A stretch of 16,238 bases of DNA from Candidatus Eiseniibacteriota bacterium (GCA_034440375.1 JAWXBZ010000180.1:1-16238); one strand, 5' to 3'. Counted from the stretch's first letter, positions 790 to 16,238 are shown. Notes: a model not told the origin generated them from the letters alone. Numbers and translations are program-made.

Positions 790-1584
790 CTAGTTGACCG
801 CGTCCGGAAGGTATTCCATGACGCGCCGAATCGCCGTGGACTTGCCGCTCACCTCATCGACATCCACGATGACCCCGCACAGGCGGACGTCACGGCCGGC
901 CGGTTTGAACTTGACCGGCAGTCCCGTGACGAAGCGGTGAATGGCCGCCTGTTTTTCGACACCGATGACCGAGTCGAAGGGGCCGGTCATCCCGATATCG
1001 GTGCAGTAGGCCGTGCCGCCCGGCAGGACCCGCTCATCACAGGTCGGTACATGGGTGTGCGTGCCGATGACCACCGAAGCCAGGCCATCGAGATACCATC
1101 CCAGAGCCACCTTTTCACTGGTCGCCTCCGCATGGAAGTCGACGATGACCACCCGGGCGCCGGCCTCTCGGGCTTCAAGAATCTTCTTTCGCGCCGTCAG
1201 GAACGGATCATCCAGCGGTTTCATGAAGGTTCGCCCGAGAACCGTGAGCAGTCCCACCGTACCGAGCGGTGTCGGATAGAGCCCCAGGGGGGAACCGGGA
1301 GCACCGTTCGGATAATTGGCCGCTCGGACAATGCGCGGCTCCTTCGGCAGGTACTCCATCATCTCCGGTTTGTCGTAGACATGGTTTCCGCTGGTCATGA
1401 CGTCAACACCCGAGGAGAAGATATCCTCGGAGGTATCCCGGGTCATCCCGATGCCGCCGGCGGCGTTCTCACCATTGGCGATGACAAAATCGATCGAGTG
1501 CTCGGTGCGCATCTTCGGCACGAAGCTCCGCACCGCCTTCCGGCCCGGATTGCCGACGATATCGGCGATGATGAGGATTCTCAC
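790..1584 (-). CDS. ymdB: YmdB-family metallophosphoesterase (2',3'-cyclic phosphodiesterase)
   Basis: Motifs [43 protein letters not shown]. Lies directly downstream of rny with a GTGA start/stop overlap at 1581-1584. Confidence 0.95.
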
Positions 1585-3155
1585 TTGGCGTAATCGACCG
1601 CGCGCGTTTCACGGATTACCACCACGCGGATCTGGCCGGGATACTGAAGCTCTCCCTCGATCTTGCGAGCGATTTCGGCGGCCAGCAGTGTCGAGCGGGC
1701 GTCGTCCACCTGTGAGGGCTCGATCATGACCCGGATCTCCCGCCCGGCCTGGATGGCATAGCACTTTTCAACGCCGCTGAATGACTCGGCCAGCGACTCG
1801 AGTTTCTCCAGGCGCTTGACATAGGTCTCGAGTGTCTCGCGACGGGCGCCGGGGCGTGCACCGGAAATGGAGTCGGCCGACTGGACCAGGACCGTATAGA
1901 TGTCATCGTGAGTCAGGTCGTCATGGTGATGCCCGATGGCATGGACCACCGCATCGGACTCGCCGTACTTGAGTCCGAGCGCCTTGCCGATGGAGGGGTG
2001 CGTCCCCTCGGTTTCGTGGGTCACCGCCTTGCCGATGTCATGGAGAAATCCACAGCGGCGGGCCAGCATTTCATCGAAGCCAAGCTCCGCCGCCATCATG
2101 CCGCAGAGATAGCCGACTTCCTTGGAGTGGTTCAGGATGTTCTGGCCGTAGGAGGTGCGATAACGGAGACGTCCCATGAGCTTGAGCAGCTCCGGGTGAA
2201 TCGCATGGAGCTTCAGCTCAAAAGCCGCCTCATCGCCCAGCGTTCGGATCTCATCCTCCATTTCCTTCCGGGCCTTCTCGACAACCTCCTCGATGCGCCC
2301 GGGATGGATGCGGCCGTCCTGGACCAGCTTCTCGAGCGCCCGGCGGGCAACCTCGCGCTTGACCGGGTCGAAGCCGGACAGGATGACCGCCTCGGGCGTG
2401 TCGTCGATGATGACGTCAATGCCGCTGACCGTCTCGAAGGCGCGGATATTGCGGCCCTCCCGACCAATGATTCGACCCTTCATCTCGTCGTTGGGCAGGG
2501 ACACCACCGATACGGTGCTCTCCAGGGCATGGTCCGCCGCGCTTCGCTGGATGGCCATGAGGACGATCTTCTGGGCCTCGCGGTCGGCCGTGCGCGCGGC
2601 TTCCTCCTTGATCTCGGAGATCAGCTTGGCGGCATCGATCCGGGCCGTTCCCTCGATGTTCGTCATCAGGACGCGGCGGGCTTCCTCCGAGCTCATCCCC
2701 GCGATCCGCTCCAGTTTCTGGTTCTCATCACGGATCAGCTTGTCGACTTCCAGGCCACGCTCGGCCAGGCGCTGCGTCTGGGCGGCCAGGTCGGTTTCGA
2801 GCTTCTTCAAATCGCGGTCCTTCGACTCGATGACTTCCACCCGCTTGGCCAGGGCCAGATCGCGATCACTGGCCTTTCGCTCCAGCGCCAGCAGTTCCTT
2901 GCGGGTGGCCTGCGACTCCTTGTCCAGCTCCTGCTTCGCCTTGAACCATTCGTCCTTGGCCTCGAGGCTGGCCGTCTTCCGAATAATCTCGGATTCGCGC
3001 CGCGCTTCTTCGATGACGGTTTCCGCACGGCCACGGGCACCGGTCACCTGCTTTTCGGCCGCCTGTTGCTGGAGGCGCCCACCGAGGACGAAGGCCACGG
3101 CTCCCACGACGATGGCCACGACCAGGGCCACCAGAATCGGATTCATCTCGCTCAT
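1581..3155 (-). CDS. rny: Ribonuclease Y
   Basis: N-terminal TM helix, coiled coil, KH domain ([14 protein letters not shown]), [11 protein letters not shown] motif (LHDIGKA), [14 protein letters not shown]. Start placed at ATG 3155 (MSEMNPIL) behind GAAGGGGA; the longer 3266 start runs into the 6S RNA. Confidence 0.97.
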
Positions 3156-3202
3156 CGTTCCATCCCCTTCCGTCCCGACAATCGGCGCCGGGGGCAAAAA
3201 AA

Positions 3203-3383
3203 TTCCCCGCCAGCTACCGTGTCGCCAGGAACCTTGAACCTGTAAAACAGATGGGCACCTTTCCAACCGGCGTTGCGCCCCCGAGATCTATCGAAGTCGG
3301 GCTCCGCTATCCGGAAGACTCGGCCCCCGTTCCACAAGTACGTTGGCTCAAAAGTACCGGGCCATCACGTGCAGGGCAGGGAA
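3203..3383 (-). ncRNA. ssrS: 6S RNA (ssrS)
   Basis: About 180 nt between zapA and rny, a known 6S synteny. The ends pair into a long rod (UCCCUGCC/GGCGGGGA, CUGC/GUAG, CGUG/CACG, UUGAGCC/GGUUCAA), followed by a U-run. Boundaries are approximate. Confidence 0.88.
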
Positions 3384-3443
3384 AAGAATCTTCGATCTTT
3401 TCTTTTGGTCGCGATCCCTTGATCGTCGCGTCGCGGATGATTG

Positions 3444-11142: not shown

Positions 11143-11219
11143 TGGTGGGCGATACTGGATTTGAACCAGTGACCCCTTGCATGTCAAGCAAGTACTCTAA
11201 CCAACTGAGCTAATCGCCC
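11143..11219 (-). tRNA. tRNA-Val (GAC)
   Basis: GGGCGAT acceptor stem, D-arm TAGCTCAGTTGGTTAGAG, anticodon arm CTTGC-TT-GAC-AT-GCAAG, T-arm GGTTCAAATCC, encoded CCA; 77 nt. Confidence 0.97.
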
Positions 11220-11378: not shown

Positions 11379-11640
11379 TCAGTCGATCAGCGTCACCGCC
11401 TCGGTTTGCGTCCGTCCCCCCGCCTCCACCCGCACGAAGTAGCGACCCGACGGCATCACGCGCCCCGCTCCGTCACGGCGACCCCAGGTCAGCAGCGTCC
11501 CCTCCACCGCCACCTGATCGAATGCGTACCGCCGAACACGCCGCCCCGATACATCGAAGATCCCCACCGAAACCGGCCCGGCCACCTCCGGGATCATCAA
11601 CAGCGACACCACATCCCGCACCGGATTCCCCCGATGCTTG
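11379..11640 (-). other. Stand-alone T9SS type-A/FlgD-Ig-like C-terminal sorting domain; small CDS or gene remnant
   Basis: GNPVRD...GPVSVGIFDVSGRRVRR...LTWGRRDGAGRVMPSGRYFVRVEAGG.TQT..VTLI-stop matches the usual NP...V.IYD..GR.VR...WDGRD..G...SG.YF pattern. No signal peptide or cargo. Possible GTG start at 11621. Confidence 0.65.
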
Positions 11641-11676
11641 GGAAAGACCCTTCGACTGAATTTCGTCCGCTCTGCC

Positions 11677-13338
11677 CTACGAGCTGACGCGTACCCAGCG
11701 GCTTTCGCCCTTCGGGTTGATCGGCGAATGAGTGGCCACGTATCGCTCCAGCGCCTCACGATCGGTGTAGCCGGTGAACCGGAAACTCTCCGAGGCCACT
11801 TCACGTATGAGGGACAGGCCGCTGTTTCCTTCCGAGAGGAAGTTGTTCATGGCGACGGTGTATTCGGTGTTCGGATCGAGCGGTTTGTCGCCGATGATCA
11901 GCGAGGTGATCCGATCCCCTTCCGCGCGCGTCGGGTCGTATTCGATGGTGGCGCCGGAAATGAAAAGCGAGGGACCGTAACGACCGACCTTTTGTTCAAA
12001 GAGGCGGCGCACGAACTCCCCCGTCACCTTGGCCTCGACCAGCGTGTTGCCGAAGGGAAGAACCGAAAGGCAGTCGCGCTTGGTGATCGGCCCCGGCGCG
12101 ATGTCGGCCCGAACGCCACCGGTGTTCTGGATGGCCAGGTTGGAACCGGTAAACTCCCGGATGGAGTCCGCCACCAGCGCCCCCAGGTTGCCCCGATCGG
12201 CGTCGCCGCGCTGCAGATTGACCCGGGTTTCGCCGATCTGTTCGTCCAGTCCCTCTTCCGCCACGGCCACCTGGGCCCCGATCGTCTCGGCGATCCCCTG
12301 GTCCGGCCAGAACTCGTCCTCGAATAGGGTGACCAGGGCTCCCCGATCATGGTGCGTCTCGTAGCCGATCATCTTCCCCAGCCGGCGGTCGAACTGAACG
12401 GTGATGTGGCCCACGCTCGAGCCATTGGCATACGGCTGGACCACCAGCGTATGCGTGACCGGATCCTCCCAGGGCTGGTCATACCCCTGGTGCGAGTGTC
12501 CGGCAAAAATGATGTCGACGCCGGGAACATAGTGCGCCAGTTCCATCGCCTCGTACTCGGTCGGACGCTCGCCCCGCGCTTCCTGCTCGATCATGTCCCG
12601 GTAGACGCTGGCCAGGTTCGGCTTGTACGGGAGTCCCGCATGCACCGGAAAGAGAATGAACTGCGCGCCCTGGGCGCGGGCCTCCTCCACCTTGGTCGGC
12701 AGCATCTCGTGGAGGGGACGGAAGGTGAGGCCGTCGATGTTCTTGGCGAACGAGATCTTGGCCGTCTCCTCGGTCACCATGCCGATGATGGCCGTCTTCA
12801 CGCCGGCCACCTCGACGATTACCATGTCCTTGACCCAGTCGACCCGCTCATTTGTGCCGGTCGTGTACAGGTTGGCGCACAGAAGGGGAAACCGGGCCGT
12901 CCGGACCAGTTCCTCGGTGATTTTCCAGCCCAGGTCGAAGTCGTGATTGCCAAGCGCCGCGGCCGTGTAACCGACCGAATTCATCCACTCGATGACCGAT
13001 TTTCCCTGGAAGTGCATGCCGACCGGCGTTCCCTGAAAGAGATCGCCCGAATCGACCATCAGGAAGCCGCGGCCTGCTTTCTCGGCTTCCGCCCGCACTT
13101 TCTTGATGTACGTGGCCGCCGAAGCACCGCCCCCCATCGGCGGCGGAAACTGCGGATTCAGAAAGGTGGCCTTTTGGGGATCGATATGTCCGTGAATATC
13201 GCTGGTATAAATGATGTCGATTTCCACGACATCGGGCGCGGGTGATTCGGCCTTCAGCGGCATGACCACCACCGCTACCACCGTCGCGGTGAAAACCAGA
13301 GTCGCCAGTATGCCCCGAATCGAACGAAATGAAGTCAC
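11677..13338 (-). CDS. Exported bifunctional UDP-sugar hydrolase/5'-nucleotidase family metallophosphoesterase (UshA/CD73-like)
   Basis: Signal peptide ending PLKA; TSDIHG, DSGDLFQG, GNHDFD, HAG, GHSH metal motifs; C-domain QNTGGVRADI and LPFGN. AGGAGAG RBS before GTG. Confidence 0.92.
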   Translation of the reverse strand: MTSFRSIRGILATLVFTATVVAVVVMPLKAESPAPDVVEIDIIYTSDIHGHIDPQKATFLNPQFPPPMGGGASAATYIKKVRAEAEKAGRGFLMVDSGDLFQGTPVGMHFQGKSVIEWMNSVGYTAAALGNHDFDLGWKITEELVRTARFPLLCANLYTTGTNERVDWVKDMVIVEVAGVKTAIIGMVTEETAKISFAKNIDGLTFRPLHEMLPTKVEEARAQGAQFILFPVHAGLPYKPNLASVYRDMIEQEARGERPTEYEAMELAHYVPGVDIIFAGHSHQGYDQPWEDPVTHTLVVQPYANGSSVGHITVQFDRRLGKMIGYETHHDRGALVTLFEDEFWPDQGIAETIGAQVAVAEEGLDEQIGETRVNLQRGDADRGNLGALVADSIREFTGSNLAIQNTGGVRADIAPGPITKRDCLSVLPFGNTLVEAKVTGEFVRRLFEQKVGRYGPSLFISGATIEYDPTRAEGDRITSLIIGDKPLDPNTEYTVAMNNFLSEGNSGLSLIREVASESFRFTGYTDREALERYVATHSPINPKGESRWVRVSS

Positions 13339-13357
13339 GACGTCACTCTCCTGTCCG

Positions 13358-13386
13358 TGACACCGGCATGAGTCACGCCGGCATCA
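13358..13386 (-). other. Intercistronic hairpin beginning at the stop codon of the barrel gene
   Basis: UGAUGCCGGCGUG-acu-CAUGCCGGUGUCA, 13 bp including G-U pairs, with no U-tract. Confidence 0.55.
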
Positions 13387-14676
13387 GAAACGATAACGGA
13401 TATCCACCACGCCCGTGAGCAGGCTGTCCGTAACGCGGTCGGTCTTGGGATCGTTGGGGTTGGTCCGGGGCGTGATGGCGTTCTGCCTCGAATTCCGCTT
13501 CAGGACGTTCATGCCGAATCCGACATCCCAGGTCTCGAACTTGTAGCCGACACCGAAGGCCACTCCCGCTTCATCCACATCCTCTGCGGCATACAGTTCC
13601 CGGTAGATGAATCCAAAGCGGGCCGGAAGATTGTTGTAAAAGACATGCTCGACACCGGCATGAAAATCCCAGGAGTTCCGAACATCCCCTGTCGCGATCG
13701 CCAGGTTGGCTTCCAGAACCGGATCGACCAGGTCGCTTTCCCAGAAGGTGCGGACAGCGGACATGCTGAACAGGGTGCGCGGGTTGTTGCGGGGATTCAA
13801 TGACACACCGATCGCGAGTTGTCCCGGATACTCGACGTCGTTGTTTCCGGTCGTCGTATCCGAGAGCGTTTCGTAACGCCAGTCCGTGTCAAGCGTGACC
13901 GGCAGCGTATAGGATGCGGCCACGGTCACACGCTCATCCAGGTCGGCCGAGGCGCCGAACGTGGCGCCAACGCCGTTGAGATCGCGCGACAGGACGTTGC
14001 GGGAGGCGGCCTCCCGATACGGCGCTGGAGCCGGTCCCGGTATCGTGGTATTGGAAAACGTCAGGTTGCCAAAGTAGTAGTGCAACGAGGCTCCGAGCGC
14101 GAGGATCCGCTCCTTGTAGCTGACTCCCGCCGATGCGGAATAGATCGAGGTGCTCGATCGGATGAACTGGGTCGCCTGCACCTTGTCACGATTGGCGGCG
14201 TCGCGACCATTGGCCACCCGGCGCTCATCCACGAAATCGTACTGGAAGTTGTAACGCTCAAAAATTCCCCCCGCCACCGAGAACCGGGGGTTCTCCTCAT
14301 TGGGCTGCCAGAGGACCCCGCCATTCACGCGCACGTAGCTTTCGGGGTTCTCGGTAATGGCCGTGTCCTTGATGTATGAGTCGAAGGAATCGAAAAGTGG
14401 CACGTACCGGGTTTCATCATATCGTGCGCCACGCACCGACATTTCGACGGCCCGACCCTTCTGACTCGACATCATGGCCGGGTTGCTCAGCAGCGAATAC
14501 GAACCGTCGGGCACGGCCACGGTGGCTCCGCCCATCGCCAACCCCCGGGCGGACTGCGCCGAAACCGGCGTTCCCCAGGCGGATTCGAGGTAGGTATAGG
14601 CACTGGCCGGACCCGCGGCGGCGAGAGCGGCCAGAACGAAGCCGGCCAGCGCCCGCGAACGAAAGGACACTCTCAT
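13384..14676 (-). CDS. Outer-membrane beta-barrel, FadL/PorV(UPF0164)-like
   Basis: GGAGGAG RBS before ATG 14676 (MRVSFRSR); signal peptide ending ASA; SARGLAMGGATVA...SNPAMM hatch motif; alternating beta-strands; C-terminal DIRYRF BAM-type signal. Confidence 0.8.
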   Translation of the reverse strand: MRVSFRSRALAGFVLAALAAAGPASAYTYLESAWGTPVSAQSARGLAMGGATVAVPDGSYSLLSNPAMMSSQKGRAVEMSVRGARYDETRYVPLFDSFDSYIKDTAITENPESYVRVNGGVLWQPNEENPRFSVAGGIFERYNFQYDFVDERRVANGRDAANRDKVQATQFIRSSTSIYSASAGVSYKERILALGASLHYYFGNLTFSNTTIPGPAPAPYREAASRNVLSRDLNGVGATFGASADLDERVTVAASYTLPVTLDTDWRYETLSDTTTGNNDVEYPGQLAIGVSLNPRNNPRTLFSMSAVRTFWESDLVDPVLEANLAIATGDVRNSWDFHAGVEHVFYNNLPARFGFIYRELYAAEDVDEAGVAFGVGYKFETWDVGFGMNVLKRNSRQNAITPRTNPNDPKTDRVTDSLLTGVVDIRYRF

Positions 14677-14723
14677 CAGGTTCTCCTCCGGAAGACGATC
14701 GCAAGTCATGGTCGTCGACATCC

Positions 14724-16238
14724 CTAGAAGGTGTAGTCGAGCTGGAAGCGAAATGAATTGACGTTGTCCTTCACGGCCGTTCCCTCGGGTCGGCCGCTCG
14801 GGTCAATCGGATTCTCGAAATTGCGGAGTTGGAGATTCGACACGACATCCTGGTTGTCGACGGTGTACTTGAGCCGCCAGGACAACTCGTTGGACAATCG
14901 GCTGCGCACCATGAACCAGTTCCGGAAGCCGGTGCCATCCAGCGCGATGAACTCGTTGTCCTCAAAGTTGTAGAGGAAGCCGTCGTAAATCTCGCTGGAC
15001 ACCGTAACCGCCAGGCCGGAGGTGAAGTTGTGGACGTACTTGGCCTGGAATGCCTGACCAGGAGCCGCCCGGGTACCGAGGTTGGTCGTCCCCCCGTTAC
15101 CGTCGCCATCGCTGCCGAGTCGAGGGCGCGGCTTGAAAATGACGTTGGTCGAGGAATATAGAAAATCGAGCCGGTTGTAGTTCGACAGGTAGAACCGGGC
15201 CTCGAATCGCGTGTCCCAGCCGGAGAACCCGCGGACCTCGTCCTCACCCTTGCCGTCCCGCTCCGACCAGCGTTGCCGGACCCGGAGGCGGACCGGAAAA
15301 ATCGGCCGATACTCGAAGTTGACGGTCAGCCGCTGACTGTTCGTATCGTCGACTTTGCGGACGTAGTTGTCGTATTCAAAGGAATTGAGCGTCAGGTCGC
15401 GGCTGATCTGGTAGCGGCCGGTCAGGTAGAACCCTCGCTCCGCCTTGGACTGCGGATCATTCTCGGCCAGGTAGGAGAACATCGGATTCCAGAGACGGAA
15501 CTCGTCGCCGGCCAGCGTCTGGTCGTACCGATTCGTCTCGGCGAAGCCGCGATGGTAGGGATTGTCGTAGTGCAGATCGTAGTCGCGGTAGAGCGCCTGG
15601 ACGTTGAAGTTCTCGTACTGGAGGTAGGCCGATCCAAGATAAGCCTCGGGGCCGGCCGCGAAGGCCCGCCCGGTAAATGTCTCCTCCCGGGCGGTCATCA
15701 GCTTGCCGTACTCGCCGGCCACGGACAGGTTGCCCAGGATGGCGGTGAAATCGGAACCGACCAGGTCGCGAAAATTTCCCAGTCCCCGGTTGTCATAACC
15801 CGCCGCAAACTCGGCATCACGCGCCTCGATGCGGTTCGGGTCGATGATCAGTGAGGTTGGATCGGGATTGAAGCGATGGATCAGGCTGTCGTCCTCGGCG
15901 CCCGGGTGAAGATTGTTGCGGTACCGCATCTCCATGGCCGTAAAACCGATATAGGTCGAGGGAAGGACCCGGATGCGGGCATTGCCGCCGACGATCTTTT
16001 CGTTCATCACATCGCGCATCGGCAGGAAACGATTACGAAATGGTGGCGCCACGAAGTCCCGGATATCCTCGAGCGTTTCGTCATCAATCCGCGGCACCAT
16101 GGTGATGCCACGGTTGAAGGAACCGTCGGGATTCAGGACGGCGTCCTTGTCGTCGTCGGAGTAGAAACCGGTCAGGCGAATCGGACCGATCGACGCCTCC
16201 GCGGCTCCGCCTTTCAGGGCTGACTCGTCGCTCCGCGA
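14724..16238 (-). CDS. Large outer-membrane beta-barrel protein, 5'-truncated; resembles the ComEA/helix-hairpin-helix-associated OM family of the FCB group
   Basis: The frame is open to the window edge (SRSDESALKGGAAEASIGPIRLTGFYSDDDKDAVLN precedes the track's Met). Amphipathic strands and C-terminal FQLDYTF. The family resemblance (E..L.G.AA, T.FYS...DA, GE.G, LYR.Y..Y.N.Y...F.E, E.GFY) is from recall, not from a search. Confidence 0.7.
   Translation of the reverse strand, partial: SRSDESALKGGAAEASIGPIRLTGFYSDDDKDAVLNPDGSFNRGITMVPRIDDETLEDIRDFVAPPFRNRFLPMRDVMNEKIVGGNARIRVLPSTYIGFTAMEMRYRNNLHPGAEDDSLIHRFNPDPTSLIIDPNRIEARDAEFAAGYDNRGLGNFRDLVGSDFTAILGNLSVAGEYGKLMTAREETFTGRAFAAGPEAYLGSAYLQYENFNVQALYRDYDLHYDNPYHRGFAETNRYDQTLAGDEFRLWNPMFSYLAENDPQSKAERGFYLTGRYQISRDLTLNSFEYDNYVRKVDDTNSQRLTVNFEYRPIFPVRLRVRQRWSERDGKGEDEVRGFSGWDTRFEARFYLSNYNRLDFLYSSTNVIFKPRPRLGSDGDGNGGTTNLGTRAAPGQAFQAKYVHNFTSGLAVTVSSEIYDGFLYNFEDNEFIALDGTGFRNWFMVRSRLSNELSWRLKYTVDNQDVVSNLQLRNFENPIDPSGRPEGTAVKDNVNSFRFQLDYTF

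Follow-up and report, generated by a model that had tools for sequence, protein, structure and literature searches.

Outside the secretin/pilus paradigm, it is still unsettled how DNA crosses the outer membrane of bacteria. Alternatives were first described between 2021 and 2025, with the TonB-dependent DdbC in Bacteroidales and a counterpart in Riemerella. As far as the accessible parts of the two reports go, a barrel in the outer membrane is combined with a surface DNA-binding protein and with nucleases both in the ddb loci of Bacteroidales and among the transformation genes of Riemerella (PMC12478041, PMC8459023). Here we analyze a stretch of 16,238 nucleotides (nt) from a Candidatus Eiseniibacteriota bacterium (GCA_034440375.1 JAWXBZ010000180.1:1-16238, the whole of which is called the window below) that, judged by gene order, carries the distal three genes (A, B and C) of a conserved five-gene module, U2-U1-A-B-C. 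Based on domain identities, fold predictions and gene order we propose, with a probability of roughly 0.55, that the five genes form an outer-membrane module that captures, imports and dephosphorylates extracellular nucleic acid. DNA-utilization or uptake loci with a dedicated outer-membrane barrel have been known since 2021-2025; what would be new here is the independence of TonB, a pore to which a helix-hairpin-helix (HhH) domain is fused, and two accessory barrels of the FadL/PorV type. We found no description in the literature of the five-gene module or of the family of HhH-bearing barrels.

To follow the module across genomes we scanned one genome per species, which gave 174 confirmed relatives of A, and the best 80 loci, all from uncultured genomes, were kept; in these, A is 34-64% identical to the copy in the window. 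Neighbors were counted by tblastn with the window proteins and with the upstream proteins of four loci, using as denominators the loci with enough DNA. B was found directly after A in all of the 69 loci with at least 1400 nt downstream, and C after B in every one of the 63 with at least 3600 nt. On the other side of A the order was equally strict, with U1, a barrel of about 297 amino acids (aa), directly before A (74/74 loci) and the gene for the large surface protein U2 before U1 (65/65), and wherever the DNA reached far enough in both directions, all five genes were present (53/53 loci). Six genes that flank the module in the window (thrS, infC, pheS, pheT, rny and ymdB) had no match in any of the 80 loci, and the genes past the module vary by clade (ClpX-like, alpha-2-macroglobulin, further lamin-tail and FG-GAP proteins), so the five genes move as a unit. 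A preliminary description, made from the window alone, had seen a three-gene cluster that continues beyond the window. The order A-B-C and its co-localization across genomes were borne out, as was the continuation, since A is incomplete and two conserved genes lie upstream of it in related loci, but the composition was not, because the module consists of five genes.

The depositors' labels of the 80 loci are Krumholzibacteri- (22), Fibrobacter- (16), Eisenbacteria (6), Gemmatimon- (5) and Latescibacterota (1), with 30 unnamed. Near-identical N-termini of B occur in L042 and L043, and again in L035, L040 and L048, under the labels Gemmatimonas sp., Fibrobacter sp. or simply 'bacterium'. Since near-identical loci are labeled differently (L042 as Gemmatimonas, L043 as Fibrobacter), the taxon names given to these metagenome-assembled genomes are unreliable.

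The gene that sets this module apart is A. Compared with its 881-aa relative P0001, to which it is 89% identical across 100% of its 504 residues and which carries PF12836, the window's A lacks about 377 N-terminal residues. Scans against Pfam and NCBIfam gave no match for A itself, although 79 relatives were found at E ≤ 1e-3 and the family holds 127 representatives among 1.84 billion proteins, the members seen being all from metagenome-derived genomes. Among the 79, the full-length proteins have about 810-880 aa and contain PF12836. Across the family, full-length members are about 750-890 aa long and start with a signal peptide (here and below assigned by eye from translations) followed by a ComEA-type HhH domain. 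The Pfam domain HHH_3 lies near the N-terminus in 5/5 full-length relatives and in all of the 29 divergent full-length representatives picked from the 127, above the Pfam cutoff in 26 and with E ≤ 2e-4 in the other three. The family profile also matches solved ComEA chains (8dss at 1.4e-10, also 8dfk and 2duy, range 1.4e-10 to 1.6e-6) and the HhH repeats of EEPD1 (9yi2, 5.9e-18). By homology, the window's A is the C-terminal part of a member of this HhH-bearing barrel family, where the HhH domain is seen in the relatives and would lie past the window edge in A. This agrees with the earlier suggestion that the first barrel belongs to an HhH-bearing outer-membrane family, and a domain of nucleic-acid-binding type is found in the full-length barrel. 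The same description had the cluster bind nucleic acid at the cell surface. The HhH domain is present in the family, but since it comes after the Sec signal peptide and before the barrel, the domain is likelier to be periplasmic, or a plug, than a surface binder, and surface binding would be better assigned to U2, the upstream protein with lamin-tail and OB-fold domains. Two distant members of the family, P0371 (1251 aa) and P0401 (668 aa), have TPR repeats ahead of the HhH domain, which suggests protein-protein docking on the HhH side of the membrane. Further leads from the Atlas, as possible relatives only, are Bacteroidota clusters of 585-676 aa named 'HhH domain-containing protein' (0.94-0.97) and DUF6029 (0.93).

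The barrel part of A had no solved sequence relative when the family profile was compared with the PDB. In an AlphaFold2 (AF2) model of P0001 (pLDDT 75, pTM 0.73) the signal peptide can be seen, as well as a stretch of helices around residues 50-210 and long strands that number about 24 by a hand count of the DSSP list. Foldseek against the PDB returned generic barrels only (SlpA, the FimD/PapC ushers, TonB receptors and MtrB, all with a query-normalized TM-score ≤0.31), and the ancestry of the barrel can therefore not be assigned. No TonB-receptor, plug or carboxypeptidase-regulatory domain was detected in A and five full-length relatives, and the matches to the TonB-receptor fold are generic (TM ≤0.29). 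At the strand positions predicted to face the lumen, assigned crudely from the hydrophobic alternation, A has 33 lysines and arginines against 18 aspartates and glutamates, compared to 72 against 93 in the whole barrel domain; the same procedure applied to B gave 16 against 19. A basic predicted lining, crude as this estimate is, agrees with a conduit for nucleic acid.

The large surface protein U2 varies from about 500 to 1700 aa in length, carries lamin-tail (LTD) domains in 34/38 members, and has CBM_56 (10 members), Big_5 (8), FlgD_ig (8), OB-fold nucleic-acid-binding (7) and DUF5689 (1) as other domains; its alignment ends in a conserved block that resembles a sorting domain. U1 matches the NCBI PorV/PorQ family in 8/8 members, at best with 1.9e-20 over a full-length alignment and 62.6 bits against a cutoff of 90, and it also matches the PorV chain 6h3i (1.2e-4). 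In the window itself, residues 60-135 of the open reading frame (ORF) called D match the type A sorting domain TIGR04183 of type IX secretion (T9SS) at 9.5e-5 (22.3 bits, cutoff 23) and FlgD_ig at 1.4e-4. D has neither a signal peptide nor a passenger domain and so could not, as it stands, direct sorting. That D is a frameshifted tail of C was considered and ruled out, as it lies in another frame than C and the C homologues with 84-95% identity are 552-553 aa long and end without a sorting domain. A tblastn search of the related loci with D matched only the C-termini of lamin-tail proteins (L063, L072, L076 and L077), among them proteins located after C in a subgroup of the loci. D is probably the remnant of a gene for a lamin-tail surface protein of the kind found after C in some relatives.

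These genes can also be seen as a T9SS-type module for display or secretion, where U2, like the protein from which D derives, would be cargo recognized by its sorting domain, U1 and B carriers or anchors and A a translocon or anchor, while the HhH domain would be structural and the nucleotidase merely co-expressed. We consider this unlikely, but of some weight. The PorV/PorQ-like U1 is what such a module would contain, a PorV-family motif is found at the N-terminus of B, FlgD_ig and the conserved C-terminal block of U2 look like sorting signals, and the remnant D and further sorting-domain proteins lie nearby; still, the PorV/PorQ matches are all below the curated cutoffs (35.2 bits against 90 in the case of B), and a display role leaves unexplained why each of the 29 divergent members has a ComEA-type HhH domain joined to its barrel, why the 5'-nucleotidase is linked to it in 63/63 loci and why 11/63 loci contain the ComEC-like insert described below. 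Display may also be compatible with nucleic-acid capture, with the display of U2 as one step of it.

The second barrel, B, is preceded by GGAGGAG at its ATG and has an N-terminus that resembles a signal peptide. It matches Toluene_X (PF03349) at 3.8e-10, with 39.3 bits against a cutoff of 29.7, and its AF2 model has a pLDDT of 85 and a pTM of 0.82. A profile of 18 homologues matched in the PDB, with the chains linked to BamG through the accessible parts of PMC12578637 and PMC12611786, first BtBamG (9.8e-21), then PgBamG (3.7e-16) and TodX (5.9e-12), and after TodX/TbuX the BamG of Flavobacterium, FadL and last PorV (6h3i, 0.0098). In Foldseek the BamG and FadL chains rank together (TM 0.63-0.75, E down to 4e-18), with TM-scores of 0.63-0.68 when normalized to the query and up to 0.75 when normalized to the target, and PorV is absent among the 50 matches listed. 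Among the curated families, B stays below the cutoffs of PorV_fam (35.2 bits, 9.8e-9, cutoff 90) and PorQ (22.1 bits, cutoff 220; NF033709, NF033710, NF033711), and the PorV-family match is limited to an N-terminal motif at residues 40-80. By profile and by predicted fold, B is nearest to BamG/FadL and not to PorV. Of the FadL/PorV type earlier given to B, the FadL fold is retained, while the PorV part applies instead to the upstream barrel U1. Neither A, which has no family match and a generic fold, nor B, which is nearer to BamG/FadL than to PorV, is an orthologue of a core T9SS barrel.

The likeness to BamG raises the question whether the genes serve outer-membrane protein biogenesis, with B as the BamG subunit of this lineage and A as a client or partner of the β-barrel assembly machinery (BAM). 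B does find its best sequence and fold matches in the BamG proteins of Bacteroides, Porphyromonas and Flavobacterium, and the accessible parts of the two reports describe BamG, a barrel of the FadL type in complex with BamA, as essential (PMC12578637, PMC12611786). We nevertheless find this role very improbable, as B scores 41.5 bits (8.8e-11) against a cutoff of 250 for the BamG equivalog (NF053685), FadL and TodX are nearly equal to BamG by fold, neither bamA nor bamD was seen in the window or in the neighborhood ORFs scanned, no Omp85 or POTRA match was found in A or five full-length relatives, and the partners in the operon are a nucleotidase and lamin-tail proteins. BamM, a BAM subunit of Bacteroidota, was considered as a nucleotidase-like partner and rejected, because in the accessible part of its description it combines a prolyl-isomerase fold with a metal-ion domain.

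The third gene, C, has a GTG start preceded by AGGAGAG and a hydrophobic N-terminus. Both 5_nucleotid_C (3.7e-37) and Metallophos (2.4e-9) are above the Pfam cutoff, and the best solved relatives are 3ivd (2e-55), 2z1a and UshA (1ush, 1.2e-35). Residues D47, H49, D99, N131, H132, H233, H281 and H283, which we take to be the metal ligands by analogy with UshA, are invariant across 19 homologues, and the predicted catalytic motifs are intact. Since it scores 182.3 bits against a cutoff of 600 for the UshA equivalog (NF007109), C is a member of the superfamily and not an orthologue of UshA. In 11/63 loci a gene of about 1.5 kb lies between B and C (L005, L006 at 11966-13501, L008, L011, L013, L016, L018, L022, L024, L047 and L070) and encodes a protein of the metallo-β-lactamase fold with a lipoprotein-type signal. 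Its best solved matches are the nuclease domains of ComEC (9ic4 at 1.2e-16, 30bt at 4e-16), and its best NCBIfam match is ComEC_Rec2. A stand-alone, exported ComEC-type nuclease domain is unusual in itself.

With an enzyme as generic as a UshA-family nucleotidase, a basic predicted lining in A and a core module that has no nuclease, one could argue that A and B are a porin set for mononucleotides and phosphoesters, which would admit nucleotides, NAD and UDP-sugars but not polymers, with C hydrolyzing these in the periplasm. This has in our view only a small chance of being right: an HhH-bearing barrel of about 24 strands, together with a surface protein of 500-1700 aa with lamin-tail and OB-fold domains, exceeds what diffusion of mononucleotides needs, and the ComEC-type nuclease in 11/63 loci does not fit with it. 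The same nuclease-like protein and the ComEA-type HhH domain do fit with DNA uptake for natural transformation rather than nutrition, and the module would then be an equivalent of the Riemerella genes with pore and ComEA function united in one protein. As described in the accessible part of that work, three proteins are required for transformation in Riemerella, one with DUF5689 at the surface, a barrel of the outer membrane and one with an HhH domain (PMC8459023). DUF5689 is weakly present here, in 1/38 U2 proteins and in a neighbor in L001; the two matches tabulated separately score 23.2 and 22.4 bits, below the cutoff of 28.6. Transformation is nonetheless a distinctly unlikely purpose, as the invariant partner (63/63) is a dephosphorylating enzyme that destroys nucleotides, the ComEC-like protein is a nuclease domain only, carried on a lipoprotein, and none of the comEC channel, dprA and comF was seen among the neighbors scanned. 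Both the display and the transformation alternatives overlap with the proposal that the module captures and catabolizes nucleic acid.

The mechanism we propose for nucleic-acid capture is modeled on known extracellular-DNA systems, because the parts repeat their logic (LTD/OB-fold domains, the HhH domain of ComEA, the ComEC nuclease and the UshA-type enzyme), and we infer all of its steps, DNA binding, import and nucleoside release included, from this likeness. U2 would be displayed on the surface, held by U1 via its sorting domain, and would engage extracellular nucleic acid, for which A would be the conduit through the outer membrane. The HhH domain of A, located in the lumen or facing the periplasm, may bind the incoming strand without sequence preference and bias its movement inward, like ComEA. 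B would be an accessory barrel, which either docks onto A or serves, like BamG of Bacteroidota, as the holder of a partner protein. The fragments could then be cut by the ComEC-like lipoprotein where it is present, or by nucleases encoded elsewhere, and C would strip the 5'-phosphate to give nucleosides and phosphate for uptake.

Several points weigh against this proposal. U1, U2 and D have a T9SS flavor and would fit a role in display or secretion equally well. No catalytic nuclease domain was found by domain scan in any of the 38 U2 members, and no nuclease is present in the window's copy of the module or in 52/63 related loci; with no nuclease in the core module, the source of the substrate for the nucleotidase is left unexplained within it. 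Enzymes of the UshA family also hydrolyze UDP-sugars, NAD and cyclic nucleotides, and C alone is therefore no pointer to DNA. HhH folds are sometimes purely structural, and some members of the A family weakly match the first domain of GspK. The synteny counts are for the best 80 of 174 loci, with the A relatives of Cloacimonadota, WOR-3 and Fidelibacterota outside them. Across loci, the identities of A and C correlate with a rho of only 0.25 (A-B 0.60, B-C 0.10), and these correlations are too weak to argue for co-evolution. Finally, in the accessible parts of the work on Xds and ExeM the bacterial lamin-tail domain has no proven role in DNA binding and is dispensable for the nuclease activity of both proteins (PMC6746945, PMC6085458).

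The layout of the window is given in Table 1. Its G+C content is 59-67% and all recognizable genes are on the minus strand. The preliminary description was accurate on the visible genes: A, B and C are co-oriented with gaps of 47 nt (A stop to B) and 45 nt (B stop to C), A is a β-strand protein of more than 500 aa that ends in Phe (...QLDYTF), the signal-peptide protein B likewise ends in Phe (...IRYRF), and the signal-peptide 5'-nucleotidase and the orphan sorting domain after it are both present.

Table 1. Positions of the module genes and adjoining features, counted from the first nucleotide of the window.
Feature	Position	Strand	Basis and remarks
Gene A, 3' part	14724..16238	-	504 codons, 5' end past window edge; ORF and translation
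Gene B, FadL-fold outer-membrane barrel, 430 aa	13384..14676	-	Toluene_X above cutoff; ribosome-binding site
Gene C, exported UshA/CD73-superfamily 5'-nucleotidase, 553 aa, complete and without a sorting domain	11677..13338	-	Pfam and PDB matches; ribosome-binding site
D, orphan T9SS-type/FlgD-Ig-like C-terminal sorting domain	11379..11627 (ORF 11379-11804)	-	TIGR04183, FlgD_ig
tRNA-Val(GAC), downstream boundary of the module	11143..11219	-	ARAGORN; Rfam tRNA 71.6 bits

The spacer between B and C (13339-13383, minus strand, 45 nt) contains an inverted repeat, CGTGAC...GTCACG, just ahead of the ribosome-binding site of C, which could be a hairpin that modulates translation of C, or chance. The tRNA-Val(GAC) gene has a promoter-like site of its own (TTGACA-17-CAAAAT, 11267-11239) and a terminator-like hairpin (11129-11109), both on the minus strand, and so makes up a unit of its own, set between thrS and the module. 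After the tRNA follow the housekeeping genes and RNAs thrS, infC, rpmI, rplT, pheS, pheT, a zapB-like gene, zapA, 6S RNA, rny, ymdB and folD. The 6S RNA (Rfam RF00013) was found at full length in the zapA/rny interval (3200-3385, minus strand) with 53 bits against a gathering threshold of 46.4. The longest rny ORF (1581-3266, TTG start) shares its first ~67 nt with this RNA, and the true start of rny is therefore probably further downstream.

In the related loci, other genes are found next to the module. Genes resembling the UgpB/UgpE solute-binding protein and permease of an ATP-binding cassette (ABC) transporter lie directly upstream of U2 in L058, L072, L075 (342-2729), L079 and L080, and this cluster, of five members in five loci, scores far below the Ugp equivalog cutoffs. 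A gene of the nucleoside-phosphorylase superfamily (PNP_UDP_1; L001:1-777, plus strand) and a DHH/DHHA1 phosphoesterase (L080:13970-15682, plus strand) adjoin the module at a single locus each. The phosphorylase, the DHH/DHHA1 protein and the UgpB/UgpE-like genes fit a nucleotide/phosphate theme, as leads only. Divergent from U2, an alkaline-phosphatase-superfamily gene is found in 33/56 loci (e.g., L032:2340-4139, minus strand) of the Krumholzibacteria type. We considered it as a phosphodiesterase and did not use it as evidence, as Pfam gives Sulfatase and more weakly Phosphodiest, and the best NCBIfam match is arylsulfatase-like. In three loci of the Eisenbacteria type (L002-L004, e.g., L003:13951-18501) an alpha-2-macroglobulin gene (1517 aa) follows C.

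If the proposal is true, the module is a route by which uncultured groups use extracellular DNA, a major pool of phosphorus and nitrogen, and it is retained in a number of poorly known phyla often found in soils, sediments and wastewater. It would also be a compact system open to test, with binding, conduction and dephosphorylation each assigned to a single part (a domain, a barrel and an enzyme, respectively), and it would extend the theme of FadL-fold barrels as holders in multi-barrel machines of the outer membrane (BamG, PorV). More tentatively, and as a possibility that we hold to be doubtful, A could be the founder of a new class of outer-membrane nucleic-acid translocons, with a basic pore of about 24 strands and a built-in ratchet of the ComEA type, free of pilus, secretin and TonB, and equipped with two FadL/PorV-type accessory barrels and a lamin-tail receptor. 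Such a class would occur widely among the candidate phyla around Fibrobacterota, Gemmatimonadota and Eisenbacteria, and the shorter HhH barrels of Bacteroidota could be relatives of it.

Among the known systems, T9SS offers a parallel for the upstream half of the module, where the PorV/PorQ-like U1 is encoded directly after a large sorting-domain protein, in the manner of PorV, PorQ and PorP; genes of the PorP/SprF type adjoin the genes for their cargo. The scores are below the cutoffs, however, A has no counterpart in T9SS, and none of the core genes SprA/Sov, PorK-N and PorU was seen in the loci scanned. B shares the FadL fold with BamG and FadL (9hiv_F, 9hjm_F, 9n2d_B, 3dwo and 1t16), and like BamG2-BamH2 it is encoded beside its presumed partners. 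It differs from BamG in its score below the equivalog cutoff and in having no BAM genes nearby, and the context does not support the role of FadL and TodX in handling hydrophobic substrates. The N-terminus of the A family has its likeness in ComEA (8dss, 8dfk and 2duy), with the same Pfam domain, HHH_3. ComEA acts as a ratchet on incoming DNA. It is a small protein, soluble or membrane-anchored, that works with a secretin and a pilus, whereas the A family has the domain joined to a barrel of about 660 residues.

The surface lamin-tail and OB-fold accessory domains of U2 resemble those of Xds and ExeM from Vibrio and Shewanella, where, as far as the accessible parts of the reports go, they are fused to an EEP nuclease, while no nuclease domain was detectable in U2 (PMC6746945, PMC6085458). 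In Vibrio and Shewanella the genes are scattered and general porins are used, whereas the module is one operon with dedicated barrels. A periplasmic enzyme of the UshA type (UshA/CpdB) is reportedly the last step of DNA-phosphate use in Vibrio.

The closest in composition are the two systems we began with. In Riemerella anatipestifer (RA0C_RS04915, RA0C_RS04920 and RA0C_RS02645), the accessible account describes, as in the module, a barrel, a surface protein and an HhH protein, which are proposed to carry DNA over the outer membrane, and no type IV pilus; there the HhH protein is separate and the barrel has a carboxypeptidase-regulatory domain, resembling a TonB receptor, while in the module HhH domain and barrel are one polypeptide of a seemingly unrelated family, and the role in Riemerella is transformation, whereas the nucleotidase of the module points to catabolism (PMC8459023). 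The ddbABCDEF loci, again in the accessible part of their description, share with the module an outer-membrane barrel, an adjoining surface protein that is a putative nucleic-acid binder, and exported phosphoester hydrolases, in an arrangement with the logic of a polysaccharide utilization locus, but DdbC is a TonB-dependent transporter and DdbD a DUF5689 lipoprotein, whereas A gives no TonB-receptor or plug match and has the HhH domain fused to it (PMC12478041). The surface protein of the module has lamin-tail domains and a sorting domain instead, with DUF5689 in only 1/38, and there are two extra barrels of the FadL/PorV type and an invariant enzyme that is a 5'-nucleotidase and not a nuclease, so that the features by which ddb loci are recognized, an anchor of the DdbC type with a DUF5689 partner and secreted nucleases, are not those of the module. 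Next to DdbC and the Riemerella barrel, the module would then be a third and mechanistically distinct candidate, in which a DNA-binding domain that is normally free in the periplasm is joined to the pore.

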